64,000 nucleotides of DNA. Source: an uncultured Thermoplasmatales archaeon (GTDB lineage: Archaea; Thermoplasmatota; E2; DHVEG-1). The stretch's first letter is position 1; each line of letters starts with the position of its first letter. This document shows positions 3,731 through 31,727 of the stretch, piece after piece. The stretch is from positions 369 to 64,368 of the forward strand of contig CAYOTP010000002.1 of the NCBI GenBank assembly GCA_964406955.1, given 5' to 3'. The position numbers and the translations under genes are program-made. The notes beneath the pieces are model-generated. The model did no database searches. It was not told the origin of the DNA and saw only the letters and a program-made list of their open reading frames with translations.

Positions 3731-5080
3731 ATGAAAAAAACCTTTAAACATTCACTGTACTATCAAAGATCATGTTCATATTTCATCTTTATGAGCACAT
3801 TTTTTCGATGGTATCGATTTCTTCAAAAATCCCAGTATTATAGCTGTGAAGAAAAAAAGCGATATCAAACAAAAAAATTTAGAGAGATTATTCAACATGC
3901 TTATAGAACTGTGCCCTATTATCACATGTTATTTAAGAAGTATGATCTTAGGCCAGAGGATATTAAAAAACTTTCAGATTTAAGAAAAATACCGATTCTG
4001 ACTAGAGAAATTGTTCAAAAAAATGTAGATTTACTAAAATCAAAGAATTATCCATCTGCGGCTTTTAAAAGAACAATGACTGGTGGAACCACTGGATCAC
4101 CTCTTGAATTTTATGTGGAAAAAGCTCGATGGCTTGGATTACATTTTGCCTTCAATAAAATATATATGAACAGAGCAGCGTATCGATGGAGTGATAGAGT
4201 TGTTTCTTTTACGGGCTGCACCCAGAAATCCATATATCATCCCGTTCTTAGAACCCTTGAGTTGAGCTCATTTCATACATCTAAAGAAGATTTTGCATAT
4301 TATTATCAGCAGATCAATAAATTCAAACCACGGTTCATTACCGCGTATCCTTCCGCAATAACGCTATTTTCCCAATATTTGAATCAGCAAAGCAAACAAC
4401 TATCTTCACCATTAAAAGCAGTTTTTCTCCATGGTGAAACGTTATTTGATTGGCAAAGAACGCTACTAGAACAAACATATGATTGTTCAGTGTTTGATCA
4501 ATATGGCCATCGTGAACAATGCGTACTTGCAGCGACATGTAAAAAAAGTAATCAGTATCATATCTTTCCAGAATACGGAATCGTTGAAGTTCTTGATTCA
4601 ACTGGCGAACCATTAGATGAAATGGGGAAAAAAGGAGAGATTATTGCTACTAGTCTTCATAACATGGTTTTTCCATTTATTCGTTATAGAACCGGAGATA
4701 TTGGGATAATTGGAAAGAATAATTGTAGTTGTGGGCGACCCTATCAATTGTTAGAAAAAATCATTGGCCGTACTCAAGAGTTTTTGATTTCTAAAAATCA
4801 TGATAAAATCCCTGCCACCGGACTTTATCATGTCATCGGAGAACAGAGTCATCATGTGAAAGAATGTCAACTGTATCAGGATACTGAGGGAAAGATCATC
4901 ATTTTTGTGGTGAAAGATGATAATTTCTGTATTGATGATGAAAAACGGTTGCTACTAGGATTCTCCAAGCGATTTGATGACTTGTTCTCTTTTCAACTTC
5001 GTTATGTTGATGAAATCACTCGGACTAAACTAGGAAAATATCAGTATGTTGTACAAAAAACTCCTAATATTTCAGTTTAG
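3731..5080 (+). CDS. PaaK/CapK-like adenylate-forming enzyme (phenylacetate-CoA ligase / coenzyme F390 synthetase family)
   Basis: 449 aa; AMP-binding P-loop TGGTTGSPLEF; paralog of ORF 29277-30683; true start may be downstream of the first ATG. Confidence 0.75.
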   Translation: MKKTFKHSLYYQRSCSYFIFMSTFFRWYRFLQKSQYYSCEEKKRYQTKKFREIIQHAYRTVPYYHMLFKKYDLRPEDIKKLSDLRKIPILTREIVQKNVDLLKSKNYPSAAFKRTMTGGTTGSPLEFYVEKARWLGLHFAFNKIYMNRAAYRWSDRVVSFTGCTQKSIYHPVLRTLELSSFHTSKEDFAYYYQQINKFKPRFITAYPSAITLFSQYLNQQSKQLSSPLKAVFLHGETLFDWQRTLLEQTYDCSVFDQYGHREQCVLAATCKKSNQYHIFPEYGIVEVLDSTGEPLDEMGKKGEIIATSLHNMVFPFIRYRTGDIGIIGKNNCSCGRPYQLLEKIIGRTQEFLISKNHDKIPATGLYHVIGEQSHHVKECQLYQDTEGKIIIFVVKDDNFCIDDEKRLLLGFSKRFDDLFSFQLRYVDEITRTKLGKYQYVVQKTPNISV

Positions 5081-11126: not shown

Positions 11127-11180
11127 AGCTTTTCCGTAACTAGTCTATGACATATATGTTTTATCAAGAAAAAAAGACGT

Positions 11181-17609: not shown

Positions 17610-17615
17610 AATTCA

Positions 17616-19106
17616 TCATCCCTCTACTTTATATATCACATCAAGTAGTTCACCATTTCGCCACTTTGTAATAGCTATGATTTCATCACCAAAATCAACC
17701 ATGGGAGGACCGCCTGTTTCATCATGAGCCATTTGTTTTAATGATTCAATGGACACAATATTGATGTTGCTTTCATCTAGTTTTTCAATTAGATCCTTTC
17801 GTTTTGGATTAATAGCGATACCTTGATCGGTAACAATGGCATCAATGACATCACCTGGGGTCGTAATTGTTGTCACCGAATCACGGATGACAGGAATCTT
17901 TTTTCGATATACTGGGACTGTTATCATTGTTAGATTTGCACCAGCTGCTGAATCCTGATGACCACCTATTCCATGAAGCAACCGGCCATCGCTATGGGTA
18001 TTTACATTCACATTAAAATTGGTGTCCACTTCCGTTGCTCCAAGGATGGTTGCATGAAGACCATCAAGAAACCGGCCCTTAGATGAAGGATCTGCATAAT
18101 GACCAATATCAGTAATCAATCTTCTTGTTTCGGCGATATATTTTATGCTTTCCACATCAAAACATTGCAGTCCATATGCATTTCGAACAAATCCTTTTCG
18201 ATGCATATCTGCAATAAATTTAGTGAAACCCCCAGTTTCACAGGCAGCAACCACATTGTTCTCCTCTAAAATCTCATCAAGATATTGTAATGCTGCTAGG
18301 GAAATACCGCCTGCTCCAGCCTGAAAGATCAATCCATCTTTAATCAGATCAAGTGCATTCATTAAATCCATACATTGCTGGGCAATATGAAGTTTTTGAG
18401 GATCATTAGTTACTTTTAGTGAACCTGAGACGATATCTTGGGGATTGCCAATTTCATCCATTTCAACGACAAAATCAACATATCCTTCATTGATTTCTTG
18501 ATAGCCACAAGGTCGTTCTACCAAGTTATCTGTAACCACTATCACATGGTCAGCATTCATCGCATCAACTTGGGAATAACATATAGGGCCAAACGCACTT
18601 TTTCCAATTAAACCGGTACAATTTCCCCTGTTATCCGCTGCAGATGCAGCAATTATTGCAACATCAACATGAAGTTCATCATTTTTGACTGCCGCCCAGC
18701 GTCCACCATGGGATCGTAATACCACCGGATGAGGTAATGGGTTTTTTGAAACATAATCACCTACAATACCATTGATACTTCCTTCTATACGATCTACCGT
18801 ACCTTGTTTGATATGGTCAATGACGGGTTTATGAATGGGAAACAATGCCGTTTGTGCTAAACGAAGATTTTTCACTCCCAATTCACTAATAACATCTAAC
18901 GTATGATTGATGACATAATCGCCATTTCTTAGTTGATGATGAAACGAGATGGTTTGTCCGTCTTTCAACCCACTTTGTTGTAGTGCTTTTTTCAAACTGG
19001 TTACCTTTGAATTGCAATTGTTTTTATGTGCCTTTTTAAAAGGTTTATACGTTTCTCCTGCAATTGTTTCTGGTATAAGCTTTCCAGCAGAGTTTCTCAT
19101 GCTCAT
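17616..19106 (-). CDS. citF: citrate lyase alpha subunit / citrate CoA-transferase (CitF family)
   Basis: 496 aa; collinear with E. coli CitF from SGLKDGQTISFHH to the C-terminal TEVDTNFNVNV...GGHQD...ITVP...IVTDQGIA block. Confidence 0.8.
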   Translation of the reverse strand: MSMRNSAGKLIPETIAGETYKPFKKAHKNNCNSKVTSLKKALQQSGLKDGQTISFHHQLRNGDYVINHTLDVISELGVKNLRLAQTALFPIHKPVIDHIKQGTVDRIEGSINGIVGDYVSKNPLPHPVVLRSHGGRWAAVKNDELHVDVAIIAASAADNRGNCTGLIGKSAFGPICYSQVDAMNADHVIVVTDNLVERPCGYQEINEGYVDFVVEMDEIGNPQDIVSGSLKVTNDPQKLHIAQQCMDLMNALDLIKDGLIFQAGAGGISLAALQYLDEILEENNVVAACETGGFTKFIADMHRKGFVRNAYGLQCFDVESIKYIAETRRLITDIGHYADPSSKGRFLDGLHATILGATEVDTNFNVNVNTHSDGRLLHGIGGHQDSAAGANLTMITVPVYRKKIPVIRDSVTTITTPGDVIDAIVTDQGIAINPKRKDLIEKLDESNINIVSIESLKQMAHDETGGPPMVDFGDEIIAITKWRNGELLDVIYKVEG

Positions 19107-19967: not shown

Positions 19968-21263
19968 ATGTCAGCAGGGCTACTAAAACGACTTCGTATT
20001 TCTAAGATCGATGCGATCATTGTTGTGGTGTTAGTAGTTATAGCTGGCTATGTTCTTTCCCAATCGGAATATGTTTCTCCTGCAATTGAAAAAGTCGTTA
20101 GCCCGATAACTGAAGAAGAAGCAGTAGTTCCCCCAGAACCAGAAGAACCAGAACTCCCCCTACCCCCTGAATCCTTAACTGCAGGATATATGAGAGCAGT
20201 TTCCCCTGAAGATGAGGGGCTTCATTTTGATAAGATAGCAGTGACGAGAGAATGGTGGTATTATTCAGCAATTTTTGATGATGATAGTGATCTAGCCGGA
20301 TGGACCATAACAATTAGTTTTAATCATATGGCAAGAACTGATCTTTTAGGAACTGCAAAACCTGATCTCTTTGTATTTACGCTGCATGGTCCAAATGGTG
20401 AAAGTTATGGAGGGTTGACCAATGAAGAAAGAGGATTAGGCATATTAAAACAACCAACTCTTCAAGCAAAAACTCCTGGTGTAGGAGTGAGTTTTGAAAA
20501 ATCTTGGGCTGAGGGGAGTGCACCAGAATGGTTCGTACACGCTGAAGATAATGACATTGATAAAAATCATGATATCGTTGCCGATTTGAAATTCTTTGCA
20601 CCCAACGACCCGATTTGGACTATGGGTGATAAAGCGCTAACGAAGAATCAGCAGAATCTAGCATCTTACGTGTTTCTTGGCTGTGAGGTGACGGGAACGG
20701 TCAAAATCGATGGGGAACATTATGATGTAAGTGGAGTGGGATTTCATGAGCATACTTGGTCTCCAAATGTGGTAACAAAAATTCTTGTGAATGGGTGGGA
20801 TTGGACTCAGATTCGTTTGGATAATGGTTGGACCATCTATTATCAAACGTATTATCCAACACCCCAATATATTACTACGAAAACCCCAAATATTAATCCA
20901 TTTGGATCATTGATACTAACCACAGATCATGGAAAAACGCTTACATCTTTTGATAAGGTAGGTCGGGAAATAGTGGATGCAGATGATGAAATTTTTACGT
21001 TTGTTAAAATGCCATTGGATATCTCAGTGAATGGGGGGGCAGGGGTTTTGCAACCATTGCTTAGCTCATATAGAATATCGATTGATTTTAACATTCGTGC
21101 AAGTAACACCTATGAACATGTGTGGAAGTTTCCAACCTATGTAGGAATGAATATTGGCCGATCAACAGTGGGTGGCAGCATTAGTTGGTCCGATGATGAC
21201 GGAGATCATGATGTTTCTTTTACAGGGATTGCAAGTTCTTGGAACATGAGGGCATTTTTATAA
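19968..21263 (+). CDS. secreted hypothetical protein, possible AttH/CrtC-like lipocalin domain
   Basis: 431 aa; N-terminal TM anchor, Pro/Glu-rich linker; Trp-rich blocks WWYYSAIFDD, GWDWTQIRLDNGW. Confidence 0.5.
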   Translation: MSAGLLKRLRISKIDAIIVVVLVVIAGYVLSQSEYVSPAIEKVVSPITEEEAVVPPEPEEPELPLPPESLTAGYMRAVSPEDEGLHFDKIAVTREWWYYSAIFDDDSDLAGWTITISFNHMARTDLLGTAKPDLFVFTLHGPNGESYGGLTNEERGLGILKQPTLQAKTPGVGVSFEKSWAEGSAPEWFVHAEDNDIDKNHDIVADLKFFAPNDPIWTMGDKALTKNQQNLASYVFLGCEVTGTVKIDGEHYDVSGVGFHEHTWSPNVVTKILVNGWDWTQIRLDNGWTIYYQTYYPTPQYITTKTPNINPFGSLILTTDHGKTLTSFDKVGREIVDADDEIFTFVKMPLDISVNGGAGVLQPLLSSYRISIDFNIRASNTYEHVWKFPTYVGMNIGRSTVGGSISWSDDDGDHDVSFTGIASSWNMRAFL

Positions 21264-21290: not shown

Positions 21291-21674
21291 TTATTTAAAT
21301 GTTACTTCACCATCATCCGCATTTAGCAAGATCACATCCCCTGTTTTTATTTGATCGATGTCAACGTGATCAACACAGGGAATACCTGCCAATATTGCCC
21401 CTGTTGCAACAATTGTTTCCGTTTCCTTATTGATAATGCCTAAAGGCCCCACACCATTCTTCTGCAGACCATATATCACATAAGATCCAACAGTGGATCC
21501 TTTTCCATTGGGAAACACAAGAATCTTTCCTTTCACTGAGTAACCCTTTAAAGGATGGCTTTTATCTATAATGATACCTGAATTTAAATCAATGCCACCA
21601 TAAAAACCAATAGGTTCAGTTGATACAATTGCTTCACCCTGGACGATACCAGGGGAAATCATCCTTCCTTTCAT
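21291..21674 (-). CDS. aconitase X swivel-domain subunit (DUF126), phosphomevalonate dehydratase small subunit
   Basis: 127 aa; Gly-rich DUF126 pattern; immediately downstream of the AcnX catalytic subunit. Confidence 0.8.
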   Translation of the reverse strand: MKGRMISPGIVQGEAIVSTEPIGFYGGIDLNSGIIIDKSHPLKGYSVKGKILVFPNGKGSTVGSYVIYGLQKNGVGPLGIINKETETIVATGAILAGIPCVDHVDIDQIKTGDVILLNADDGEVTFK

Positions 21675-22858
21675 CAGGACACCTCCTCAATAAGTTTATC
21701 GATATCTGCAAACATCACTTTTTGCTTACAAAAACCAGGTAAATAATTGGCAGCTTTACCTGAATTCACTCCAGTTTGATGATAACCCATTTGTTCAATT
21801 GGAGACACAACCATACAGGTATCAGCAACCACATGTCCTCCAGCAGCCAAGATGATTTCTGAAAAACCCATTCTATCAGAAGCTTCCTTCATCATTCTTG
21901 ATGTGCAAATCCATACGGGTTTTTTCAATTGTTTTCCCTTCACTTTCTCTGCCAAAACAGCTATCTCCCTCAACGAAGCATGGGGGCATCCAAGAATGAC
22001 GATATCTAGGTTGTCACCATCAGTTAAGGTTTCATAGGTCTCATCAATATCTTTCTGCTCAACGGTAATTTTCTCCCCAATGTCTTTGTTAACTAGATCT
22101 GCTTCAGGTGTTAGTTCATTCACATGATACAACGCAACAGCACCTGAAGCGGCCATTGCAGCACCTAAAGCTTTTAAATGATCGGTATTTGCATCTGTGA
22201 TCCCTGTAAAATAGGGAATTTTGTTTTTCACTTTTTTTCCAACATAGTAGCCTAATGACCCATAATCAGAAGTAAATGAAAGCTTCGCATCAACATGGAT
22301 TTGTATCGTTGGCTGTCTGTTCTTCCAAAGATGCAAACCATACTCTGGAGTACGACCACAAAGTGATGCCGCAAGTGCAGAGGGGCCTCCCTCCCTATTT
22401 GTACGAGCTCCAATTACTGAATTGGAAAATGAAACAGCAGAAGATTCAGACCAAGCAATATGTTCCCGAAACCGGGGAAGATTCCCAGCCAAATAAGGTG
22501 TACAGGTGGAAGTAATAACTATTCCCATTTTTTTAAATGCATCAATAATCCTTAACTGATTCTTTGCAAATTCCTCAGGGAAACCAAGTTCTTTATAGTT
22601 CTCAAGGTCCATACCCGCAGGATTTAAAAAAGTAAGCACTTGAGCCTTTGCATCTTTTGAAGCAATATCTTCAAGAAAAGTGGTTCCCGGTTCTCCTATG
22701 GATTTGTAGGAAACACCTGCAACTTGGACGGATCCAACAGGAATCATTTTTTCAGCACCGTAAATCTCCCCTAATCGAACCAACAGTCGAAACATTCGTT
22801 CCTTGACCTCACCAGCTTCACCATCAAGCATTTGTTCCTCTTCAGTAGTTAGATACAT
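21674..22858 (-). CDS. aconitase X catalytic subunit (DUF521), phosphomevalonate dehydratase large subunit
   Basis: 394 aa; Cys-containing AcnX catalytic domain; in operon with MVK and UbiD homolog. Confidence 0.8.
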   Translation of the reverse strand: MYLTTEEEQMLDGEAGEVKERMFRLLVRLGEIYGAEKMIPVGSVQVAGVSYKSIGEPGTTFLEDIASKDAKAQVLTFLNPAGMDLENYKELGFPEEFAKNQLRIIDAFKKMGIVITSTCTPYLAGNLPRFREHIAWSESSAVSFSNSVIGARTNREGGPSALAASLCGRTPEYGLHLWKNRQPTIQIHVDAKLSFTSDYGSLGYYVGKKVKNKIPYFTGITDANTDHLKALGAAMAASGAVALYHVNELTPEADLVNKDIGEKITVEQKDIDETYETLTDGDNLDIVILGCPHASLREIAVLAEKVKGKQLKKPVWICTSRMMKEASDRMGFSEIILAAGGHVVADTCMVVSPIEQMGYHQTGVNSGKAANYLPGFCKQKVMFADIDKLIEEVS

Positions 22859-23175
22859 GATTCAAGCTCCTTGCAATTCTTCATAATAATATCAATATCT
22901 TCTTTTGTTGCATTATCTATATGAATTCCCCCTACTACAACAACAGTGGTATCATATTTTTTACATGCTTTTTCAGCAATTGGTCCCAACACAAGATAGT
23001 CTTTATGCGTCCCCAATCGGATTGTATTTGATTTTTCACCAGGTTCACAAACAACCACACTACCAATATGAGGTTTTTCACCACCCTGTACCACATACAG
23101 GAGGTTTTCCCCCACCATATGTTTTTCAATTTTAACCCAGTGTTTACCCGTTCCCGATGTAATCATCGATATCAA
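22849..23175 (-). CDS. conserved hypothetical protein embedded in mevalonate operon
   Basis: 108 aa; overlaps both neighbours by a few nt (translational coupling); no motif I recognise. Confidence 0.5.
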   Translation of the reverse strand: MISMITSGTGKHWVKIEKHMVGENLLYVVQGGEKPHIGSVVVCEPGEKSNTIRLGTHKDYLVLGPIAEKACKKYDTTVVVVGGIHIDNATKEDIDIIMKNCKELESCI

Positions 23176-24460
23176 CTAATTCATAATGTACTTTCTCATA
23201 ATTTTTTTTATCGACATGTTCCGGAATGGTTGCATCAATCCCCATCTTTGCAGTACGTGTTTTTTCCCCAGGAACATGAACACCGGATGGATCCAATGAA
23301 CTACCCGTCTGAAGTTCTTTGACCAGTAAATCTTTATCTGATTGAAAACGAGTTGCTATCGCCCATTCAACAGCCAAAGGATCATAAATGTCAACATCCT
23401 CATCAACGATTACAACATGTTTCAAACTCCCATGCCCTTTAAATGCTGCTTCAATTGCTTTCTTTGGTTCATCAGGGTGCTTTTTGTTGATTTGTACTAT
23501 AGCATGAAGCCAAGATCCACCACCAATAGTGACGTACACGTTGGAACAAGACGTAACTTTACTGACTTCGTGATAAATCGTTGGTTCCTTGGGCATCCCC
23601 ATCAATGTCTTATGCTCAAATCGACCAGGTATTAATGCTTGATACATCGCATCATTTCGATGGGTGATACAATCAACGACAAATACAGGTTCCTGTCTTT
23701 CAAAATCCCGTGTTTCCGTAAGATCAACAAAAGGGCCTTCCCGATCAACATCACGAGTGAGACGACCTTCAAGCACAATCTCTGAAAAAGCAGGCACCTC
23801 CAAATCCTTGGTCTTACATTTCACAAGTGGTGTTTCATCTAATGCATTGGCAATACCGAACTCATCAACAGTAGATGGTGGGCCAAGTGATGCAGCAACC
23901 ATTACTGCCACAGAACTTCCTAGGCACACAGCCATTTCGAGGTCACCGTCGATTTTATCAAAAGTAGTTCGGGTTTGTCTTTTTTTTATCAGTCGAGCAG
24001 TAAGTTTGTTTTTCCCAACCTGCATCAATCGATGATATGAGACGTTCCGTCCATCATCTGGATCCTTGATGGTACATACAGATGCTGAGACATATCTTCC
24101 ACCATCTCCATGGAGGTGATGTAGCAGGGGTAGACAAGAAAGATCCGGATTGGTTATCACCTTTTCTTGACAAGGTGCTTTTTCAATGATTTCTGGTTTT
24201 TTTGGATTCTTTAAAGCATCAACCAGTTTAAACAGTAGTTCTTCTTTGCTTGTATTTAATCCCTGGGCTATGATATCTCTATTTGAAGTGATTCCTGCAA
24301 ATACGGGAAAATCAAATCCTTTGACTTTTTCAAACAACACCGGTTGTTCCTTTAATGAATAAATGATGTTAGCTGCTTCAAACTGATGAGAAATAGGTCT
24401 AGTGATACGGGTGAGTTTCTGCTCATCTTCAAGTTTTTTTAGAAAGGAGCGAAGATCCAT
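23144..24460 (-). CDS. UbiD-family decarboxylase (likely trans-anhydromevalonate-5-phosphate decarboxylase)
   Basis: 438 aa UbiD-like; genomic context with MVK and AcnX matches the archaeal alternative mevalonate pathway. Confidence 0.8.
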   Translation of the reverse strand: MDLRSFLKKLEDEQKLTRITRPISHQFEAANIIYSLKEQPVLFEKVKGFDFPVFAGITSNRDIIAQGLNTSKEELLFKLVDALKNPKKPEIIEKAPCQEKVITNPDLSCLPLLHHLHGDGGRYVSASVCTIKDPDDGRNVSYHRLMQVGKNKLTARLIKKRQTRTTFDKIDGDLEMAVCLGSSVAVMVAASLGPPSTVDEFGIANALDETPLVKCKTKDLEVPAFSEIVLEGRLTRDVDREGPFVDLTETRDFERQEPVFVVDCITHRNDAMYQALIPGRFEHKTLMGMPKEPTIYHEVSKVTSCSNVYVTIGGGSWLHAIVQINKKHPDEPKKAIEAAFKGHGSLKHVVIVDEDVDIYDPLAVEWAIATRFQSDKDLLVKELQTGSSLDPSGVHVPGEKTRTAKMGIDATIPEHVDKKNYEKVHYELVDIDDYIGNG

Positions 24461-25411
24461 CTAAAGGTCACCTTGTCTTTTAACACCAATGCTAGTTTTT
24501 AATGCTTTGAACCCTTCTTTTTCAATGGCATTTGCCACTTCATCTTGTAATCTTTTCCCAGGAGTTAATGCTAACATATTACCACCAAGACCGCCACCAG
24601 TAAGTTTTGCTCCATATGCCCCATAATCCCGGGCAAGCTTAACAAGGAAATCAAGCTCTCTTGAAGAAACTTCGATTTGTTGTAATAACTTATGATTTTC
24701 ATTCATCAATTTACCGATCTCATGAACGTCTTCATCGATAAATGCCTGTTTTGCCAAATACGCAATATTTTCAGCTCTTTTGAAAATTTCTTCGTATTTC
24801 TCAGGCTGCGCCTCCTTTCTCTGTCTAACACCACTAACAGCAGCCGTGGTGTCTGCCACTTTTCCTGTATTTCCCATTACAATTTCAATTTGATTTTGAA
24901 GTTCAATTCTATCCATAACGGGTGGTTGTTTTTTTTCAAACCATATCAGGCCGCCAAAGGTCGATGCAGTGTTATCAATTCCAGATGGAGTTCCATGATA
25001 TCCTTTTTCACCTTCATACGCTATTTCATTGATTTCATCATCAGATAATTCCAATTGATAAAAATTAGAGAGTGCTCTTGCTACGGCCACACATGATGCT
25101 GCGCTTGCTCCGATACCACTTGCAGCATATAATGTGCCTGCTAATTCAATTTCAACGCCTTCTTTTGAGAAATCAAGATTCATTTTTTGTATTATTCGTT
25201 TTATCGAATCCTTTTGCTGATCCTTTTTATCCTCCTTATATTTAGGAGTTGCGTTTCGGTTATCAACTAGGGACAATCTCGCTTCATGATATGTCTTAGC
25301 TTTTGCAATGGTATACTTATCAATTGCAGAAACAATTGCTGGCACACCATACACAACGAAATGTTCATTGAACAAAATAGCCTTTCCAAAACCTATACCC
25401 TCACCATTCAT
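24461..25411 (-). CDS. mvk: mevalonate kinase (GHMP kinase)
   Basis: 316 aa; N-terminal KAILFNEHFVVYG and GHMP P-loop-like Gly-rich motif LTGGGLGG. Confidence 0.75.
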   Translation of the reverse strand: MNGEGIGFGKAILFNEHFVVYGVPAIVSAIDKYTIAKAKTYHEARLSLVDNRNATPKYKEDKKDQQKDSIKRIIQKMNLDFSKEGVEIELAGTLYAASGIGASAASCVAVARALSNFYQLELSDDEINEIAYEGEKGYHGTPSGIDNTASTFGGLIWFEKKQPPVMDRIELQNQIEIVMGNTGKVADTTAAVSGVRQRKEAQPEKYEEIFKRAENIAYLAKQAFIDEDVHEIGKLMNENHKLLQQIEVSSRELDFLVKLARDYGAYGAKLTGGGLGGNMLALTPGKRLQDEVANAIEKEGFKALKTSIGVKRQGDL

Positions 25412-25493: not shown

Positions 25494-26501
25494 TTATGTT
25501 TGTTTACCTTCGTTTAGAATCTGATTTCGTAGTTTTCGAACTGTTGTTCCTTTTTTACGCGCCTCATGCACTGAAACAATAAATCCAATAAATCCTGTGA
25601 ACAAATCAGTTACCACAAAACCAAGCAGAGAAACAACAAACATTTTTTCTCCTGAAACTGCAAACAAAGTCGAAAACAGAACTATTGCAGTAAACTCTCT
25701 TGTTCCAAGTCCTGCAAAGCTAATTGGGATAAAGCCTGCTGCGTTAGCCAATGGAAAGAGAAGTAGGAAATAAAGATAAGGAATGGGCATATCTAAAGCA
25801 TGAACCAGAAGGTATTTTTGCGAAAAAATAATAATCCAAGTGAACACGCCAATGGATATTGGAAGAAAAAGAGATTTTATCCTTGGAAAATCCTGATAAA
25901 AGGAATCGGAAAAACGATTGAGATGCCAACGGAATTTTTTAGGGATGAAGTACCGGATAATAAATTTAAAGAACCATTCACCACGATTTTTTCCGACAAA
26001 AAAAAGAAGAAATGAAAGAAAAATTATCATCCATGCTGCAGCGATCATGAACAATTCGGGAAAATCACTTAACACCAATAATGCACCAATGAGAATCATG
26101 GCATACAATGAAAATGTATGAATAATGGTTTCAATCGTAGAATTGATAAACAATTTACCATACGGCTGACCAGTATATTCTTTCAAATGAGGTATTCGCA
26201 TCAATTGCCCTAAATAACCTGGAGTGATACTTCCATAAAAATAGCCGATAAGAAAAATCTTCATTGAATTTATGGAAGATACATGAATTTTTTGTTCTTT
26301 TAATATGAGTTGCCAGGTATAATTTCTTATTAAAATTCTAGGAAAGGCAAATGGTAAGATCAAGAAAATATAAATCGGATGAATAGAAAAAAATGCATCT
26401 TTTATCTTAGTGATATCCAGTTGATATATTGTATAAATGAACAAGATCAAGCCAATAAACGGAAGAAATTTTTTGATAATGGTGAATTTATTATTTTTCA
26501 C
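25494..26501 (-). CDS. LPG-synthase-TM / UPF0104 flippase-like membrane protein
   Basis: 335 aa, about 8 TM; paralog of ORF 30747-31727 (N-terminal KFLPFIGLILF vs KFLPIIGLLLF). Confidence 0.7.
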   Translation of the reverse strand: MKNNKFTIIKKFLPFIGLILFIYTIYQLDITKIKDAFFSIHPIYIFLILPFAFPRILIRNYTWQLILKEQKIHVSSINSMKIFLIGYFYGSITPGYLGQLMRIPHLKEYTGQPYGKLFINSTIETIIHTFSLYAMILIGALLVLSDFPELFMIAAAWMIIFLSFLLFFVGKNRGEWFFKFIIRYFIPKKFRWHLNRFSDSFYQDFPRIKSLFLPISIGVFTWIIIFSQKYLLVHALDMPIPYLYFLLLFPLANAAGFIPISFAGLGTREFTAIVLFSTLFAVSGEKMFVVSLLGFVVTDLFTGFIGFIVSVHEARKKGTTVRKLRNQILNEGKQT

Positions 26502-26693
26502 AATTTTTCTGCATATGATTTCTCATTAAAGTTTTTTTCACTTCCAAAACCTTATAGTATACAAAAGATCATTGTGATGTTTTTGATGTGAACCCATTTT
26601 CCAATCGTATTTACCTAACCATACTACTCTTCTATCATTCATGCAATGATCTACTGAATGATGAAAAACGAAAAATAATTATTTTTTAAAAAA

Positions 26694-28295
26694 TTAAAGT
26701 TTTTTTCGTAGCCTATTAATCGCTTGTAATTCATTAATTGAAAGTGTCTGCTTTTTAGGAGCGGTTTTTTTTATCTTTGGTGGGGTTTTAAAAACTTCGG
26801 TAAGAACCCTTCCATCAAAAATTGGTGAAAGTGAAACATCCATCATAGCTAAAATTGTTGGTACAATGTCTACAATAGATGCATTAACCTGCTTATTTTT
26901 AATGATATTATCCCCACAGATGAAAAAAATGCCATGGGGCCGATGATCTCCCATCCAATCGTAAAAACCAGGTGTTGAAATTGTTGAAAGATCATGTTTA
27001 GACGATGTAAAGAGCTCTTTTAATCCTCCCGGAGGTTGCAATAATTCTTGTGCCCCATACTCCTCCTCTAAATCAAAAATGATATCCAATGGATCATTTA
27101 CTGCGTTTTCCCCATAAATTTCTTCCCCGGTGTAAATCTCTTTCACAATTCGTTTTCCAGTTTCAGGATCCTTAACTTGTTTTAAAAAAGAAATTAATTC
27201 AGCTCTAACAGATTCGTAATCCTTTGGATCAACGATGCCGTATGGATATTTTCCCTTAAGATTAATCCTGATGCCACGTGAACATACTGAATGATACATT
27301 GCAACCGTTTTTTTATAATCTATTGTGCTCTGTGATGCTCCAGACATGATCAGTTTTCGACCAATTTCAGATCGTGCCAATTTCTGTAAAGGTATCAGAT
27401 GGAAGATAATTCGGCTGAATCGATCAAAGAGAAGAGCAATAATCGTGTTTAGATTATGAGTGGGATTTGAAGTTGTGTGTAAATATCCTTCATTGTACAA
27501 CGCATTATTGACATAGAAATATTTTTTGGGTTTTCCAAATCCATGATCTGAAACAATTACAAAGTTTGCATCAGGATACTCGTTCATCATATGGCCAATA
27601 TATTCATCTGCTTTCTGATAACATGATAAGATCAAATCCATTCGATCCCATAACAAATGTTGAACGTCATCTGTTCCACGGAAAACGACCATAGTGAAAT
27701 CCCAATCATCCATTTTCATAAGATTCATGGTAACCCTGCCATGAGATGAGGTCATCTTGTTGACCTGATCCGCTAGTTTTTCAGGGGCATATCGTGCGGT
27801 GAGATTCTTTGGGATATCATCAACGGCAACTTGTTCTAGGACATACGAGCCGATCTTATCTGGATTAAGTGCTTTTTTAAGTTCTTTGGGATAAGTAAAA
27901 TTTGATGAAGGCGATGGTGTTAACAATCCAGTGATCATCACACCATTGATCTTCTCTGGAGGATACGTCCCTGGAACATTTACAATAATACTTCGTTTAC
28001 CTTCATCGGTTAAAAACTTCCATATTGCAGGAACCTTTCTATTTCTAGAGTTAATAATTCGTTTTACACAAGTATCAGTTCTAAAAAAATCATAAATACC
28101 ATGTTTTCCTGGTTGAACACCAGTTACCATTGAAACCCATGCTGGAGCGCTATAGTACGGTGTTGTCGATCGTAATTTTCCATAAATACCTTCCTTTTTG
28201 ATTTTTGAAAAGGAGGGTAATTTTCCTTGTTCAATCCAGGGAAGCATTAAATCTAGTGTTCCGCCATCTAGTCCAATAAGTACTGTTTTTGTCAT
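26694..28295 (-). CDS. alkaline-phosphatase superfamily enzyme (type I phosphodiesterase / nucleotide pyrophosphatase family)
   Basis: 533 aa; N-terminal metal-site block IGLDGGT...TTPYYSAPAWVSMVTG...GKHGIYDF typical of PF01663-like proteins. Confidence 0.75.
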   Translation of the reverse strand: MTKTVLIGLDGGTLDLMLPWIEQGKLPSFSKIKKEGIYGKLRSTTPYYSAPAWVSMVTGVQPGKHGIYDFFRTDTCVKRIINSRNRKVPAIWKFLTDEGKRSIIVNVPGTYPPEKINGVMITGLLTPSPSSNFTYPKELKKALNPDKIGSYVLEQVAVDDIPKNLTARYAPEKLADQVNKMTSSHGRVTMNLMKMDDWDFTMVVFRGTDDVQHLLWDRMDLILSCYQKADEYIGHMMNEYPDANFVIVSDHGFGKPKKYFYVNNALYNEGYLHTTSNPTHNLNTIIALLFDRFSRIIFHLIPLQKLARSEIGRKLIMSGASQSTIDYKKTVAMYHSVCSRGIRINLKGKYPYGIVDPKDYESVRAELISFLKQVKDPETGKRIVKEIYTGEEIYGENAVNDPLDIIFDLEEEYGAQELLQPPGGLKELFTSSKHDLSTISTPGFYDWMGDHRPHGIFFICGDNIIKNKQVNASIVDIVPTILAMMDVSLSPIFDGRVLTEVFKTPPKIKKTAPKKQTLSINELQAINRLRKKL

Positions 28296-28483
28296 AATTC
28301 AAAAAAAACTATCTAGAGTATATGATATTAAATTTTCTTTCAATAGTATGGAAAACAAGTGAAAACAATGATTTTAACAGGTGTTACACTGGTGAAAAGT
28401 TTTTAATAAGTCGCAAAGTTATTGATGGGAGAAAAACCTATTTCATAAAAAAAATAATTATAGTCATAATGAGGTAGTCTTAA

Positions 28484-29272
28484 ATGAATTTAAAAGGAAA
28501 AGTAGTTCTTATTTCAGGTGCAACTGGTGGGATGGGTGAAGAATTAGTTAAGGAGCTTGCCAAAGAAGGATGCAAACTTGCTTTGTTCGCCCGAAGGGAA
28601 AATAAATTAAAAGAGCTGAAAGATCAATTGGAAACAGATCACACACCGGTTACCTTTAAAACATGTGATGTTGCTCATAAAGACCAAATAAAGGAAAGTG
28701 TAGATCATACAGTTAAAACATATGGGACCATTGATTTGGCAATATTAACCGCAGGAGTTTTAGTTCCAAACCCTATTCAAACCTTTGATAGTAGCATCAT
28801 TAAACAATCCATGGATATTAATTTCATGGGAATTGTCTATTTCATAGAACAATTACTTCCAATTATGAAAAAACAAAAGAGTGGAACGATTGCAGCTGTA
28901 TCCACCCTACCTGATAAAAGAGGTGTTCCAGGATGGGGAGCCTACGGATCAAGTAAAGCAGCCATGAGTTGGCTGATGGAAAGTCTTCGTGCGGAGGCTA
29001 AACAACGGTATAATGTTAACATGATCACTATTAAACCAGGCTCAGTTGAAACTCCAATGATTGAAGACTATCATCGACAAGGAGCAATTTCAGCAGAGAA
29101 TGCTGCTAAGGTCATGATAAATGGCATTAAAAAAGGTAAACGAGTAATTCAATTTCCAATCGCACAGGTGATGCTGATCCGCTTACAAGATTTGTTCCCT
29201 CCTTTTGCCTATGATCTTTTTCCGATAGAGGCCTCAAAAGGTGAAGGATACCCAAAGGTAGAAGAAGAATAA
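28484..29272 (+). CDS. short-chain dehydrogenase/reductase (SDR)
   Basis: TGxxxGxG (GATGGMG) and catalytic YGSSK (YxxxK). Confidence 0.85.
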   Translation: MNLKGKVVLISGATGGMGEELVKELAKEGCKLALFARRENKLKELKDQLETDHTPVTFKTCDVAHKDQIKESVDHTVKTYGTIDLAILTAGVLVPNPIQTFDSSIIKQSMDINFMGIVYFIEQLLPIMKKQKSGTIAAVSTLPDKRGVPGWGAYGSSKAAMSWLMESLRAEAKQRYNVNMITIKPGSVETPMIEDYHRQGAISAENAAKVMINGIKKGKRVIQFPIAQVMLIRLQDLFPPFAYDLFPIEASKGEGYPKVEEE

Positions 29273-29276
29273 ACAA

Positions 29277-30683
29277 TTGTTATTTGTGATGTCAATGAAT
29301 CCGCTTTTCAATCCATTCATCTCATTTTCCCTTTTAAGGAAAATTCTTTTTGAACCCGAACAACTGAGAAAAAAATCATCAGATCAGATTCAAAGATATA
29401 AAAACAAGGCATTTAGAAAAATGGTAGCCTACGCCTACACCGTTCCCGTATATCATCAAAAATACAAAAAAGCTAACATCCATCCCAACGACATCAAAAC
29501 AATTGAAGATATCAAAAAACTTCCATTCATATCTAAAGATGAGTTAAAACATAGCTTTGGAATGGATATTCTGCCGGGAAACTACAAAAAAACAAATGCA
29601 TACCCCTATTGCACAGGCGGCACAACTGGGAAACCGTTATGTTTATACACTGATTTTTACACCCTTGCATCTGCAGCTATCATTGCATTAAGGGAACTGA
29701 AATACCTTAATATTTCCACGAAAAACATCCGATTTGTTCATATTGGTAATTTCAATCCGAATCGAATCGATCTTGTCGCACAACAACTTTTTGAAAAACA
29801 TCTTTCTTTCTTACCTATCACTCAAAATCAACTAAATATCGATGTGAGCACTCCGTTAAAAGAAATCATCAACAAACTCGATAGATACAAACCAGATGTG
29901 ATCATGACCTATCCTGCACTATTTCAACACCTATCATATCTGAAACGAAACGGACATGGGCCAAATATCAAACCTAAACTCTGTTGGACTGGTGGAGCAA
30001 TGCTAGATGAATATACTAGAATATTGGTACAAGATTCTTTCGATTGTCCTTTATTAAACATTTATCCTTCTGTTGAAGCAGGATCAGATATTGCATTTGA
30101 ATGTTATGATGGAACCTGGCACGTCCATGATGATTATTTCCATCTTGAGGCAATCGATGAACAAGAAAGAGTTGTTGATCCGGGTAAAAGAGGACATGTC
30201 GTCATCACCCGTCTCTGGGGAAAAGGAACTCCAATCATTCGATACACTGGCATGGATGACTGGGTAACACTCACAGACCCCATACAGGATTCGTGTGGAT
30301 TAACCACCACAACAATCAAGGGAGGAGTTGAAGGAAGGAAACGGGCAAACATTGTTCTCCCCAATGGACAGGTGTTTCCACCAGGAGCCTTTTGTTTTAT
30401 CACACCCGTATTAATCAAGTATCAAACGTTTAAAGTAAAACAATATCAAATCATCCAACAGGATCTTTATCATATCGATATCCTTCTAGTCGTCGATGAA
30501 AAACTTCGAGAAATAGGAATATCAATTGATACGATCAAAAACGAGATAAAAAAGATTTATGAACAAAAAGTCGGAAGTCAAGTAGAGATCTCTATAAAGG
30601 AAGTCGACGAAATCCCCCACAAAAAAAATGCAACAAAACCTCCACCAATTGTCATTTCTCACGTTAACGAAGATAGGATTTAG
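29277..30683 (+). CDS. PaaK/CapK-like adenylate-forming enzyme, paralog 2
   Basis: 468 aa; P-loop CTGGTTGKPL; starts 5 nt after the SDR stop. Confidence 0.75.
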   Translation: MLFVMSMNPLFNPFISFSLLRKILFEPEQLRKKSSDQIQRYKNKAFRKMVAYAYTVPVYHQKYKKANIHPNDIKTIEDIKKLPFISKDELKHSFGMDILPGNYKKTNAYPYCTGGTTGKPLCLYTDFYTLASAAIIALRELKYLNISTKNIRFVHIGNFNPNRIDLVAQQLFEKHLSFLPITQNQLNIDVSTPLKEIINKLDRYKPDVIMTYPALFQHLSYLKRNGHGPNIKPKLCWTGGAMLDEYTRILVQDSFDCPLLNIYPSVEAGSDIAFECYDGTWHVHDDYFHLEAIDEQERVVDPGKRGHVVITRLWGKGTPIIRYTGMDDWVTLTDPIQDSCGLTTTTIKGGVEGRKRANIVLPNGQVFPPGAFCFITPVLIKYQTFKVKQYQIIQQDLYHIDILLVVDEKLREIGISIDTIKNEIKKIYEQKVGSQVEISIKEVDEIPHKKNATKPPPIVISHVNEDRI

Positions 30684-30746
30684 ATGAATAGACAACCCCC
30701 TAAAAAACATATATTACAACATTACAACTTCTATCCGGTATGACCC

Positions 30747-31727
30747 ATGACTTGGAAAATACAGCTAAAAAAGATAACAAAATTTCTTCCCATCATAGGA
30801 TTATTGCTGTTCGTTTACATATTATTTGACATTGGATTTGAAAAAACCTTCGAAGCATTCTCATTGATTCCTTCGTATTACTATGGTCTTGCATTACTTG
30901 TGTTTTTACCAAAACTCTTTATCGCAGGTATAAAATGGCAATACTTGAACAAAAAACAAGACATTCAAATCAATTTTTTTACAATACTGAAATTATATTT
31001 ACTTGGTCTATTCTATGGAAGTGTAACACCCAGTGCAATCGGCATGCACATCCGGGTGTATTACCTACAAAAAAAATCACAAGCTTCTTTTGAAAAGTGC
31101 ATTGCAAACTCACTGATTGAAGCAACTCTTGCCACTCTTGCAGGAATATTTTTAGCAATTATCGGATCAGGACTCATCCTTCAATCATACCCCGGACTAT
31201 TACCCATCATCATCGGTTTTTTTATCGTTTACACCACCGGATTTATATTTTTCATGGAGCATAAACGAGGATACGGTTTCTTTTCCTTTATCATCCGCCC
31301 GTTTCTCCCCCTTAAACGCAAAGAGAATTTAGACATCATCATTTCAAGATTATACAAAGATATCCCCAAGCTACGTGACTTACTTATTCCCTTTTTTCTA
31401 GAGCTTATTATGTGGAGTTTAGCCGCCACACAAGTTTATGTTCTGTCACTATCATTTTCCCTAAACATACCATTTATTGAATTTATTTTATTAAGCATTG
31501 TTTCTGTAATCATCGCAAACGTAATTCCATTATCAATCGGAGGGTTAGGGTTAAGGGAAGGAACATTTGTAGTTCTTCTTTCCACATATCAAGTTCCCTT
31601 CGAGATTGCATTTGTTCTATCTCTCAGTGGGTTTTTTGTAAAAAATTTAATTCCAGGATTATCTGGACTAGTCATATCTCTTTTTGAAAAAGAATCACCC
31701 GTTGAAGCTATCCAATCATCAGGATAA
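30747..31727 (+). CDS. LPG-synthase-TM / UPF0104 flippase-like membrane protein, paralog 2
   Basis: 326 aa polytopic; conserved GGLGxRE near C-terminus shared with ORF 25494-26501 (GLGTREF). Confidence 0.7.
   Translation: MTWKIQLKKITKFLPIIGLLLFVYILFDIGFEKTFEAFSLIPSYYYGLALLVFLPKLFIAGIKWQYLNKKQDIQINFFTILKLYLLGLFYGSVTPSAIGMHIRVYYLQKKSQASFEKCIANSLIEATLATLAGIFLAIIGSGLILQSYPGLLPIIIGFFIVYTTGFIFFMEHKRGYGFFSFIIRPFLPLKRKENLDIIISRLYKDIPKLRDLLIPFFLELIMWSLAATQVYVLSLSFSLNIPFIEFILLSIVSVIIANVIPLSIGGLGLREGTFVVLLSTYQVPFEIAFVLSLSGFFVKNLIPGLSGLVISLFEKESPVEAIQSSG

Follow-up and report, generated by a model that had tools for sequence, protein, structure and literature searches.

The gene cluster from 25494 to 31727 of the window, which is the whole 64-kb stretch of DNA from an uncultured sediment archaeon of the Thermoplasmatota analyzed here, is a composite locus. 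Its outer genes, Flp1 and Flp2, are ancestral, directly adjacent and divergently transcribed neighbors in this sediment Thermoplasmatota group, and the cassette consisting of AlkP and the divergent SDR and ligase (PaaKL) genes was inserted between them once, in one clade that includes the window. With somewhat less than even confidence, the locus is best read as a variable envelope-tailoring island, in which the head group of a lipid, or else a glycan attached to a lipid, would be modified by a VpsH-like carboxylate ligation; this function is read throughout from the neighborhood and the folds.

Table 1. Features of the window discussed in the text
Feature	Position	Strand	Basis
Flp1, standalone PF03706 (arCOG00899/PplT-type) flippase-like membrane protein, 335 aa	25494..26501	-	Pfam/NCBIfam matches
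AlkP, predicted cytoplasmic NPP-like phosphodiesterase/nucleotide pyrophosphatase (COG3379-type), 533 aa	26694..28295	-	PF01663, fold, residues
AlkP/SDR divergent intergenic region, 188 nt, presumed bidirectional promoter region	28296..28483	.	Sequence inspection
Classical SDR (short-chain dehydrogenase/reductase), 262 aa	28484..29272	+	PF00106, motifs
PaaKL, PaaK/CapK-family ATP-dependent adenylate-forming ligase, 462-464 aa	29289..30683	+	NCBIfam partial matches, predicted fold
Flp2, second standalone PF03706 flippase-like membrane protein, 326 aa	30747..31727	+	Pfam/NCBIfam matches
PaaK2, second PaaK-like ligase of the window, of another subfamily than PaaKL	3731..5080	+	NCBIfam matches
Modified archaeal mevalonate-pathway genes (AcnX small and large subunits, LpdD-like, UbiD-type decarboxylase, mevalonate kinase)	21291..25411	-	Pfam/NCBIfam

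Gene content of the cluster

All five open reading frames of the cluster were found at the positions and on the strands that a preliminary description of this DNA had assigned to them (Table 1), and they are genuine genes rather than chance ORFs, because each has numerous orthologues, at 44%–96% identity. As a whole, this description was partly borne out: its gene content stood, while the conserved, specific pairing that it proposed did not. The view that two paralogous PF03706 membrane proteins flank the cluster agrees with the full-length matches of both proteins to this family (E values of 1.4e-33 for Flp1, at profile positions 7–302 of 302, and 1.4e-34 for Flp2) and with their mutual identity of 33%. 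Both also matched TIGR00374 (2.8e-23 for Flp1 and 4.9e-24 for Flp2), Flp2 matched HpnL (1.6e-11), and the sequence of Flp1 contains several hydrophobic segments. As single-domain PF03706/TIGR00374 membrane proteins of ~300–340 aa, they are of the arCOG00899/PplT type, and the Flp2 orthologues among the matches listed (44%–95% identity) are all single-domain as well. Flp1 missed the cut-off for the GlcN-PG flippase NF053789 (19 bits versus 320), and a profile of Flp2 orthologues did not match any solved MprF chain in a sequence search. The mevalonate-pathway block lies directly downstream of Flp1, and the assignment of its LpdD-like gene is supported by the annotation of PF21758 (LpdD_chaperone) in orthologous loci.

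The presence of an SDR and an AlkP-family phosphodiesterase in the cluster was likewise confirmed. The SDR matched PF00106 with an E value of 4.9e-46 (157 bits), and it contains the GATGGMG cofactor motif and the YGSSK catalytic motif of classical SDRs. AlkP matched PF01663 at 1.9e-38, with 133 bits compared to a gathering score of 23, and the top folds for its model (pLDDT 81.6) were ENPP1/3 and the Xanthomonas NPP (TM ~0.5). The residues D10, T44, D209, H213, D250, H251, and H451 are invariant and N106 is near-invariant, and the bimetal ligands and the Thr/Ser nucleophile of NPP enzymes are present. Neither a signal peptide nor an N-terminal TM segment was seen upon inspection of the sequence. 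Hence, AlkP is predicted to be an NPP-like phosphodiesterase of the cytoplasm, and its bimetal site is of the NPP type and complete. It shares with the NPP family the above-threshold PF01663 match, the fold, and the metal and nucleophile residues, but it represents a cytoplasmic type of 530–560 aa with large insertions, which is 11%–16% identical to solved NPPs.

The AlkP/SDR intergenic region contains AT-rich, TATA-like stretches and a GAGGT sequence 8–12 nt upstream of the SDR ATG, and no Rfam family scored above threshold within it. It presumably acts as a bidirectional promoter region; the divergent layout of AlkP and SDR is kept in 15 loci. The 63-nt gap between PaaKL and Flp2 is devoid of a T-tract, unlike the sequence after the AlkP stop codon, which is T-rich. 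Scans against Pfam identified no glycosyltransferase and no carrier protein in the cluster or among the ~60 largest ORFs of the window, and no aa-PG synthase domain (PF09924/DUF2156) in the five cluster proteins or ~60 other window ORFs.

Family and predicted fold of the ligase

The partial NCBIfam matches of PaaKL, which are all far below the cut-offs, place it in the PaaK family of ANL enzymes, and its sequence matches in the PDB were PaaK1 and BT_0428. The local Pfam library gave no match above threshold (the best was AMP-binding, E 0.012), while CapK_C (PF27533), which is listed for many PaaKL homologues, was a precomputed match flagged as weak and absent from the local scan. The predicted model (pLDDT 87.6) resembled solved PaaK-type structures with TM values of 0.56–0.71 and Foldseek E values of 1e-22 to 3e-28, the latter for BT_0428/PaaK1. 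Among homologues, the TGGTxG P-loop is invariant, T113 and K115 are near-invariant, and Y259/E263, R318-Y319-G321-D324, G349-R350, and K450 are at least near-invariant. With its two-domain ANL fold, P-loop, and C-terminal catalytic lysine, PaaKL is of the PaaK type, and both its fold and its adenylation site are predicted to be intact. These features are shared with PaaK and NatL2/AjiA1, but PaaKL is 16%–19% identical to them, its TIGR02155/NF041878 scores are ~1/7 of the cut-off, and it differs from PaaK in having an SDR as its partner rather than a paa operon.

Two specific assignments were rejected. As a bona fide PaaK, PaaKL scored 92.7 bits against the TIGR02155 cut-off of 646.3 and 78.4 bits against the NF041878 cut-off of 700, and as an F390 synthetase 48.8 bits against the TIGR03335 cut-off of 458.7. 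Because the cut-offs of both kinds of NCBIfam equivalog were missed, PaaKL is neither a phenylacetate-CoA ligase nor an F390 synthetase proper, which is in line with the preliminary description. The names that carry a taxon among the listed PaaKL homologues (712 in total) all denote Thermoplasmatota/Thermoplasmata except for one, Atribacterota, and the PaaKL loci are all from archaeal MAGs, mostly labeled Thermoplasmatota.

The mechanically called ORF of PaaKL starts with TTG at 29277, while an ATG at 29289 or 29295 is supported by orthologues. The reported distance of 5 nt between SDR and ligase (4–5 nt) holds only from the TTG, and becomes 16–22 nt from either ATG. An HMM scan of the six-frame translation detected two PaaK-like genes in the window, PaaKL and PaaK2, instead of the three that had been counted. 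PaaK2 is 24% identical to PaaKL and its NCBIfam matches were the DVU_1553 family (5.4e-41) and FlxY (7.9e-35), all below cut-off.

History of the locus

The comparison covered ~165 loci related to the window. In ten distinct related loci (L081/94, L084, L085, L091, L099, L104, L108, L110, L112, and L119) Flp1 and Flp2 are divergent neighbors without any insert, while the insert-bearing loci form a single clade in the MVK tree. The site of the pair, with the mevalonate-pathway genes on one side and the FTHF-PurP-ThrRS block on the other, is variable; the pair is syntenic with the mevalonate block in >20 loci, and Flp1 adjoins MVK in ~20, at times with a small methyltransferase gene in between. 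A single insertion thus accounts for the flanking of the cassette by Flp1 and Flp2: the three soluble enzymes were taken up as an insert by one lineage. Decay of the insert was also observed: in L095 AlkP is split and SDR and ligase are gone, and L007 is without AlkP and Flp2.

The constant partner of the ligase is the SDR, which was found directly upstream in all 31 loci, while AlkP accompanies the two genes in 15 of them. A PF03706 gene is present within ~10 kb in only 11 of these loci, mostly from the window's own clade, so the pairing of ligase and PF03706 protein is not conserved across genomes; in the remaining 20 loci the SDR-ligase pair exists independently of such a gene and lies beside ribosomal-protein, glycolytic, or B12-radical-SAM genes. 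Given its origin as an insert, the locus probably serves the tailoring of the cell envelope and is not a fixed new lipid-acylation machine.

Links to the envelope in related loci

A PaaK-family gene was found within 5 kb in 10 of 42 Flp2-orthologue loci (~217 kb of flank). PaaK2-type ligases occur near Flp2 orthologues in three arrangements, together with an ATP-grasp, an rSAM-SPASM, or a methyltransferase gene, and PaaK2 orthologues (41%–43% identity) adjoin Flp2 orthologues in L081/L094, L114, and L118. Hence, the proposed pairing does recur, in several arrangements that are not homologous and with ligases of two subfamilies that share 24% identity, even though its specific form is not conserved. 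Roughly five independent arrangements remain after shared ancestry is collapsed, and the chance of accidental adjacency is raised because the genomes carry several PaaK-like paralogues.

Orthologues of AlkP (~45% identity) are encoded divergently to a sulfotransferase and inside GT28/Wzx/PMT_2/GT2/B12-rSAM clusters. A bacterial MAG contains the operon GT4-PF03706-GT-C-AlkP-PF03706-GT2-DUF2304, where the AlkP relative (28% identity over the full length, E 7e-71) again lies between two PF03706 genes. Paralogues of PaaKL neighbor sulfotransferase, geranylgeranyl-reductase-like, UbiA, and CrtC-like genes, and also a cysteate synthase-PAPS reductase fusion. The GT/Wzx clusters hold relatives of AlkP and not of PaaKL, while the window has flippase-like genes and no GT. 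The recurrent ligase-Flp2 adjacency and the contexts of the AlkP relatives indicate that the association of ligase and flippase is more than pure accident, and the sulfotransferases, GT28, Wzx, GT-C, and GT2 near relatives of AlkP and the ligase point to tailoring of a lipid-linked glycan as much as of head groups.

Possible functions of the locus

In the envelope-tailoring reading, the island would act at the cytoplasmic face of the membrane, either on the head group of an isoprenoid lipid or on a glycan linked to a polyprenyl carrier. One reaction partner may be prepared or adjusted by the SDR, and PaaKL could activate a carboxylate as acyl-AMP and then couple the acyl to an amine or hydroxyl group, in chemistry resembling that of VpsH, which is needed to put glycine onto a lipid-linked uronic acid, and of the ester-forming NatL2/AjiA1. 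AlkP might cleave a nucleotide-containing phosphodiester or pyrophosphate, which could serve as a donor, arise as a by-product (e.g., PAP/PAPS), or be an adenylate, and a PF03706 protein, probably Flp2, possibly co-transcribed, would carry the product across to the outer face. Ligase and flippase would be coupled facultatively rather than obligately. Several observations run against this reading, namely the absence of a glycosyltransferase from the 64-kb window, the location of two thirds of the SDR-ligase loci among housekeeping genes with no flippase within 10 kb, the small number of Flp-ligase adjacencies left after shared ancestry is collapsed, in genomes whose several PaaK-like paralogues make accidental adjacency more likely, and the lack of any solved MprF chain among the matches to the Flp2-orthologue profile.

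Several known systems bear comparison. The attachment of glycine to a bactoprenyl-PP-linked disaccharide depends on the PaaK/CapK-like protein VpsH (PMC13463779). PaaKL is likened to VpsH by description and by the weak CapK_C match, the shared element being that a PaaK/CapK-like protein would work, ahead of flipping, on the carboxylate of a sugar linked to polyprenyl-PP, and the PaaKL paralogues beside sulfotransferase and cysteate-synthase genes fit this likeness; VpsH, however, belongs to a Wzx/Wzy cluster with glycosyltransferases, of which the window has none. In gpgSDF of Pseudomonas aeruginosa and hexSDF of C. difficile, cytoplasmic lipid head-group enzymes are followed by a standalone PF03706 protein, whose flippase activity, including that of gpgF, is predicted (PMC12713373). 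Their layout is analogous to SDR-ligase-Flp2, but they perform glycosyltransfer and deacetylation on bacterial PG or glycolipid and have no ATP-dependent ligase. According to PMC5898192, arCOG00899 proteins are predicted archaeal flippases, and the sections considered here of this source and of bioRxiv 10.1101/2022.03.11.483950 describe genomes with several arCOG00899/PplT paralogues and connect these proteins with glycosylation. Flp1 and Flp2 are typical standalone archaeal members, comparable also to the C-terminal domain of AglD. The contexts described in these sections are different, however, comprising GT2/AglD, STT3-like, and deacetylase plus GT; a divergent PF03706 pair by mevalonate genes with ligase cassettes is absent from them.

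It is less likely, although it deserves weight, that SDR and PaaKL serve soluble metabolism, as an acyl/aryl-CoA ligase and a hydroxyacyl/alcohol dehydrogenase in catabolism or cofactor synthesis, and that the flanking by flippase genes is accidental. The closest solved relatives of PaaKL are indeed CoA ligases (PaaK1/2, BT_0428, and 2-hydroxyisobutyryl-CoA ligase), the three cassette proteins are all soluble by sequence inspection, one insertion event accounts for the flanking, and most SDR-ligase loci lie amid housekeeping genes (ribosomal proteins, TIM, transaldolase, PGK, GAPDH). However, the PaaKL family is far under every CoA-ligase equivalog cut-off, beta-oxidation and paa genes are absent near SDR-PaaKL, the association with AlkP, B12-radical SAM genes, and sulfotransferases is recurrent, and a second ligase subfamily is also associated with Flp2 orthologues.

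A more ambitious and rather improbable explanation takes the divergent PF03706 pair as a fixed export platform, to which each lineage adds interchangeable ligase cassettes, such as SDR with PaaKL, PaaK2 with ATP-grasp or rSAM, or sulfonate- or sulfate-supplying genes. If so, isoprenoid lipids or lipid-linked glycans would gain acyl, aminoacyl, or sulfonated groups in an archaeal tRNA-independent counterpart of MprF/Dlt, and Flp1 and Flp2 might form a heterodimer.

The preliminary description itself had envisaged an MprF-like system, in which PaaKL replaces the tRNA-dependent synthase for ATP-driven (amino)acylation of an archaeal phospholipid head group, e.g., archaetidylglycerol, and Flp1/Flp2 flip the product. 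We consider this quite improbable. MprF shares with the cluster the PF03706 flippase domain, matched full-length by both flanking genes, and the general idea of modification at the inner face followed by translocation, and its two domains function when expressed separately (bioRxiv 10.1101/2022.03.11.483950). PaaKL is predicted to be catalytically intact and is neither of the two family enzymes rejected above, Flp2 orthologues repeatedly adjoin PaaK-family ligases, no glycosyltransferase is present in the window, and the locus abuts genes for isoprenoid lipids (MVK, UbiD, and AcnX), while a gene for a polyprenyl synthetase lies at 38980-39969. On the other hand, the cluster is without the PF09924 synthase domain and tRNA dependence of MprF, and its flippase-like proteins are a standalone, divergent paralogue pair with an ANL ligase, an SDR, and an NPP-like enzyme as neighbors. 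The pairing derives from one insertion and is missing at most SDR-ligase loci, the SDR is left without a role, relatives of AlkP and the ligase occur in glycan and sulfation clusters, and neither the listed PF03706 homologues nor the 120 listed ligase homologues include a PF03706-ligase fusion. Nothing points to the suggested aminoacylation, D-alanylation, or acyl-phosphate chemistry on phospholipids. Aminoacyl and carrier machinery is absent, and the DltC carrier and DltB MBOAT of Dlt-type D-alanylation are missing from the window and from the annotated recurrent neighbor families.

Very improbable is an adenylylation cycle, in which PaaKL would adenylylate a cofactor or metabolite hydroxyl, as F390 synthetase does on F420, and AlkP would remove the AMP like F390 hydrolase, since the F390 synthetase equivalog was not reached, AlkP is not nearby at half of the SDR-ligase loci and has relatives in glycan clusters without any ligase, and the SDR has no evident role, even though F390 synthetase is of the same family (weak TIGR03335/TIGR02304 matches, 4e-13), NPP enzymes, whose fold and active site AlkP is predicted to have, hydrolyze 5′-nucleotide phosphodiesters, and the presumed divergent promoter region is common to AlkP and SDR-ligase in 15 loci.

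Gene content of the locus and properties of the encoded proteins

The window is AT-rich (~36% GC), and its gene content is archaeal, with ThrRS bearing an archaeal editing domain, PurP, a mevalonate pathway of the AcnX/UbiD/MVK form (MVK, mevalonate kinase), fibrillarin and TFB. A Logan contig matches part of the locus exactly, and all but one of the taxon-bearing homologue names pointed to uncultured Thermoplasmata/Thermoplasmatota, including SG8-52 estuarine MAGs. The coordinates and families proposed for five ORFs in the preliminary description were borne out, and the two flippase-like proteins, Flp1 and Flp2, proved to be 33% identical. Other details required correction: a local Pfam scan assigned no family above threshold to the ligase (PaaKL), the gap between the SDR and ligase genes is 16-22 nt rather than 5 nt when orthologue-supported ATG starts are used, and the window contains two PaaK-like genes instead of three, the second of which (PaaK2; 3731-5080, plus strand) encodes a protein 24% identical to PaaKL.

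Genes of the flippase-ligase cluster, with window coordinates and family assignments
Gene	Position	Strand	Assignment
Flp1	25494-26501	-	PF03706 full length, E 1e-33
AlkP	26694-28295	-	PF01663, E 2e-38
SDR	28484-29272	+	classical SDR, PF00106, E 5e-46
PaaKL	29289-30683	+	PaaK-family ligase (sequence alignment, modelled fold)
Flp2	30747-31727	+	PF03706 full length, E 1e-34

The PaaKL sequence could be aligned with PaaK1 and BT_0428, and its model (pLDDT 87.6) has the fold of a two-domain PaaK-type ANL enzyme. The Foldseek comparison reached 3e-28 with TM 0.6-0.7 at 18% identity, and NatL2, AjiA1 and ClxA were also high-ranking; NatL2 and AjiA1 are PaaK-like enzymes of CoA-independent ester formation. 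Among 16 orthologues (54-100% identity) the TGGTxG P-loop core, Y259/E263, R318-Y319-G321-D324, G349-R350 and the C-terminal K450 were invariant, while T113 and K115 were nearly so. Because these motif residues are conserved, the adenylation site of PaaKL is intact. The protein fell well short of the NCBIfam equivalog thresholds for PaaK, haloarchaeal PaaK, F390 synthetase, FlxY and DVU_1553, and it represents a distinct subfamily.

The AlkP model (pLDDT 81.6) was nearest to ENPP1/3 and Xanthomonas NPP, and the NPP-type pattern D10 / T44 / D209-x3-H213 / D250-H251 / H451 was invariant in 14 orthologues, with N106 nearly so. The AlkP sequence has neither a signal peptide nor a membrane segment at its N terminus, and the protein is most likely a catalytically active phosphodiesterase or nucleotide pyrophosphatase of the cytoplasm. 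The SDR contains the cofactor and YxxxK motifs, and no specific characterised relative of it was found. The homologues of Flp2 were single-domain proteins in every case, and a profile of Flp2 orthologues gave no match among PDB sequences, those of solved MprF included.

The ligase and Flp2 genes are separated by 63 nt devoid of T-tracts, and for this reason they may be co-transcribed, while T-rich tracts lie 3′ of AlkP. Hence, one transcript may cover SDR, ligase and Flp2, with separate transcripts for AlkP and Flp1. Comparison of the regions upstream of Flp2 in 14 loci revealed no promoter motif that was conserved outside the closest relatives. A sigma-70 promoter scan, a model not applicable to archaea, gave fewer matches than shuffled sequences, and an Rfam scan of 24-33 kb for a ligand-naming riboswitch returned just one sub-threshold snoRNA-like match.

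The SDR and ligase genes form the constant unit

The scan for the ligase, using one genome per GTDB species, retrieved 79 loci, whose neighbouring genes were clustered and annotated. The loci all derive from MAGs of archaea, almost all of which bear a Thermoplasmatota or Thermoplasmatales label, and no cultured genus was among them. In the loci with an orthologue of at least 52% identity and available upstream sequence, the SDR gene was directly upstream of the ligase in every case (31/31), while a divergent AlkP was present in 15, a PF03706 gene in 11 and B12-radical-SAM genes in 10 of the 31. The remaining SDR-ligase pairs adjoined ribosomal-protein genes, DUF5611, TIM, transaldolase or PGK/GAPDH. 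Profile HMMs for additional PF03706, AlkP and SDR genes in the 79 loci added nothing to the BLAST clusters except one weak AlkP match. These counts show that SDR and ligase are the constant unit, AlkP is a frequent third member, and a flippase gene accompanies only a minority. DUF5611 was rejected as a carrier partner of the ligase, because it keeps its position despite other insertions and thus represents flanking context.

A probable single insertion into an ancestral flippase gene pair

The surroundings of Flp2 were compared using the contexts of orthologues at 44-55% identity and a metagenome scan with closer sequences. The data showed a conserved block in the order CrtC-like / AcnX / UbiD / MVK / (small methyltransferase) / Flp1(-) Flp2(+) / ... 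/ beta-helix surface protein / FTHF / PurP / ThrRS, and in ten distinct loci Flp1 and Flp2 were divergent neighbours with no gene between them. The loci bearing the AlkP-SDR-ligase insert formed a single clade on an MVK NJ tree. Within this clade, L007 lacks AlkP and Flp2. In L095 (6146-8795) two ORFs of 87 and 452 aa represent a split AlkP orthologue, and ~950 nt without a long ORF precede Flp2 where SDR and ligase would be expected, which looks like cassette decay or else an assembly error. Most simply, a cassette that already existed entered the divergent intergenic region between two ancestral flippase genes once and then decayed in part. On this history, flanking alone is weak functional evidence. 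The preliminary description had read the two flanking flippase genes as a functional pairing; conservation of this pairing was not supported, given the single clade and the minority of SDR-ligase loci with a flippase gene. When the surroundings of the cassette were searched for repeats that could mark an insertion scar or the ends of an IS element, the sole inverted repeat corresponded to the N-terminal coding parts of the paralogues Flp1 and Flp2.

An operon of Flp1 with MVK was also considered and rejected, because in many relatives an opposite-strand gene for a class I methyltransferase of ~205 aa lies between them (L081:6319-6933, with equivalents in L099, L104, L108, L110 and L112); therefore, Flp1 is not generally co-transcribed with the mevalonate genes. 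The beta-helix/NosD-like gene (44888-46939, plus strand, 683 aa), which in most relatives lies immediately past Flp2 on the opposite strand, is displaced by 13 kb in the window. The CrtC-like lipocalin/DUF7065 protein (19968-21263, plus strand, 431 aa, no NCBIfam match) is conserved in relatives just outside the mevalonate block, on its AcnX side, and is encoded again where ligase paralogues cluster with geranylgeranyl-reductase-like, UbiA and B12-radical-SAM genes.

Recurrent proximity of ligases to Flp2

Outside the insert clade, Flp2 orthologues adjoin ligases of another type, 41-43% identical to PaaK2. Three arrangements of these genes were found: convergent (L081/L094), divergent (L114), and convergent with an rSAM-SPASM gene between (L118); ATP-grasp and methyltransferase genes accompany the ligases there. 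Further ligase-Flp2 variants were present in L022, L030, L044 and L083. Overall, a PaaK-family gene was located within 5 kb in 10 of 42 Flp2-centred loci (~217 kb of flank), as compared with only 1 of 40 loci centred on distant PF03706 genes, where it was counted anywhere in the locus. When shared ancestry is collapsed, about five independent arrangements place a ligase beside Flp2, which is suggestive of a non-accidental association without being conclusive. In L083 (3638-7936) a 1432-aa protein with a C-terminal Flp1-like PF03706 domain (50% identical) is encoded directly 5′ of the Flp2 orthologue; its long N-terminal part has only faint Ig-like/CarboxypepD_reg-type matches.

Relatives of AlkP in glycan clusters

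At 54% identity AlkP is still accompanied by SDR and ligase, and additionally by a sulfotransferase gene, while at ~45% identity it is divergent to a sulfotransferase, in clusters with more sulfotransferases, GT28-type glycosyltransferases, a Wzx-type flippase, PMT_2, GT2 and tandem B12-radical-SAM genes. A bacterial MAG lineage contains an operon (L128:8650-19234, also L131 and L162) in the order GT4 - PF03706 - TMEM260-like GT-C with TPR - AlkP - PF03706 - GT2 - DUF2304 - TPR protein, in which the AlkP (COG3379) is 28% identical to that of the window over its full length (E 7e-71). Hence, the placement of AlkP between two flippase-like genes recurs in another domain of life. In several lineages (L168:2281-4915, L015, L028, L031) tandem B12-binding radical SAM genes with DUF4070 adjoin AlkP, and their best partial NCBIfam matches, all below cut-off, were BchE, HpnJ and 'lipid biosynthesis B12/rSAM'.

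Possible function of the island

Thermoplasmatota have no cell wall, and so their surface consists of membrane lipids and lipid-anchored glycans. To our knowledge, almost nothing has been learned about surface decoration in abundant sediment lineages. Taking the order and history of the genes, the integrity of the catalytic motifs and the cytoplasmic location as established, we infer that the island acts in the tailoring of an envelope component on the inner side of the membrane. In this scheme, a carboxylate would be converted by the ligase into an acyl-AMP and joined to an amine or a hydroxyl, with the SDR producing or adjusting one of the coupling partners; the NPP-like AlkP would cut a nucleotide-linked donor or by-product, and a PF03706 protein would translocate the product. 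Precedents for such coupling are the ester-forming NatL2 and AjiA1. Another is the PaaK/CapK-like VpsH, which is needed to add glycine to a bactoprenyl-PP-linked uronic acid (PMC13463779). A translocation role has been proposed for gpgF (PMC12713373), for arCOG00899 proteins (PMC5898192) and for PplT (bioRxiv 10.1101/2022.03.11.483950). The target could be either a lipid head group, in line with the isoprenoid genes surrounding the locus and with the failure of a Pfam scan of the ~60 largest ORFs to find a glycosyltransferase in the window, or a lipid-linked glycan, in line with the location of AlkP relatives in glycan clusters.

Alternatively, SDR and ligase could be a soluble acid-CoA ligase/dehydrogenase pair that landed in a variable spot, which would match the housekeeping surroundings of most SDR-ligase loci and the presence of CoA ligases as the closest solved relatives of the ligase. 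This explanation leaves the repeated ties to AlkP, B12-radical-SAM genes, sulfotransferases and Flp2 unexplained, and we consider it rather unlikely. An MprF-like acylation of phospholipids, a form of the lipid acylation first suggested for this locus, appears improbable; it leaves the SDR without a role and relies on an adjacency of single origin. A chemically neat F390-like cycle, with adenylylation by the ligase and de-adenylylation by the NPP-like enzyme, finds little support and is very improbable.

Several elements of the envelope-tailoring proposal have already been described, namely standalone archaeal PF03706 proteins and the prediction that they act as flippases, the occurrence of CapK-like ligases in glycan clusters, and operons of cytoplasmic lipid-modifying enzymes with a PF03706 gene. 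The literature search did not find a divergent PF03706 pair fixed beside mevalonate genes, a conserved SDR and PaaK-like pair with or without an NPP-like enzyme, or recurring ligase cassettes beside such a flippase pair, and it gave nothing specific on PF03706 or PaaK-like ligases in Thermoplasmatota lipids or on F390 synthetase with archaeal lipids. If ligase cassettes do feed PF03706 translocators, the function of standalone PF03706 proteins in archaea would become accessible for the first time, archaeal PaaK/CapK-like ligases would gain a new reaction class, and candidate genes would be at hand for polar head groups of sediment lipidomes that lack an explanation so far. If they do not, what looked like a module is an insertion specific to one lineage, and a caution against inferring function from one window.

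Sulfur-related contexts of ligase paralogues

The neighbours of distant ligase paralogues include sulfotransferase, geranylgeranyl-reductase-like, UbiA, CrtC-like and B12-radical-SAM genes. In a clade 45-48% identical to PaaKL (L042, L045, L046, L048, L049, L052-L055; e.g., L045:554-2566, L042:5262-5882) two genes are always located 5′ of the ligase, which encode a cysteate synthase-PAPS/APS reductase fusion and a phosphatidylserine-decarboxylase-family protein. The cysteate synthase domain scored 399 bits against TIGR03844 (cut-off 324.9), and through this cluster non-methanogenic Thermoplasmatota may form a conjugate that bears cysteate or taurine. In the window, a TauE/SafE sulfite-exporter family protein followed by a PLP-dependent (PALP) enzyme is encoded at 10329-12077 (minus strand), 5 kb downstream of PaaK2, a sulfur flavor that echoes the sulfotransferase and cysteate contexts of the ligase paralogues. 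Another isoprenoid gene, for a polyprenyl synthetase (38980-39969, minus strand), lies 7 kb downstream of the cluster, and the region 15013-19106 (minus strand) carries an unusual combination of an aconitase-family protein, a 262 aa citrate-synthase C-terminal-domain protein and a citrate lyase alpha (CitF) homologue.
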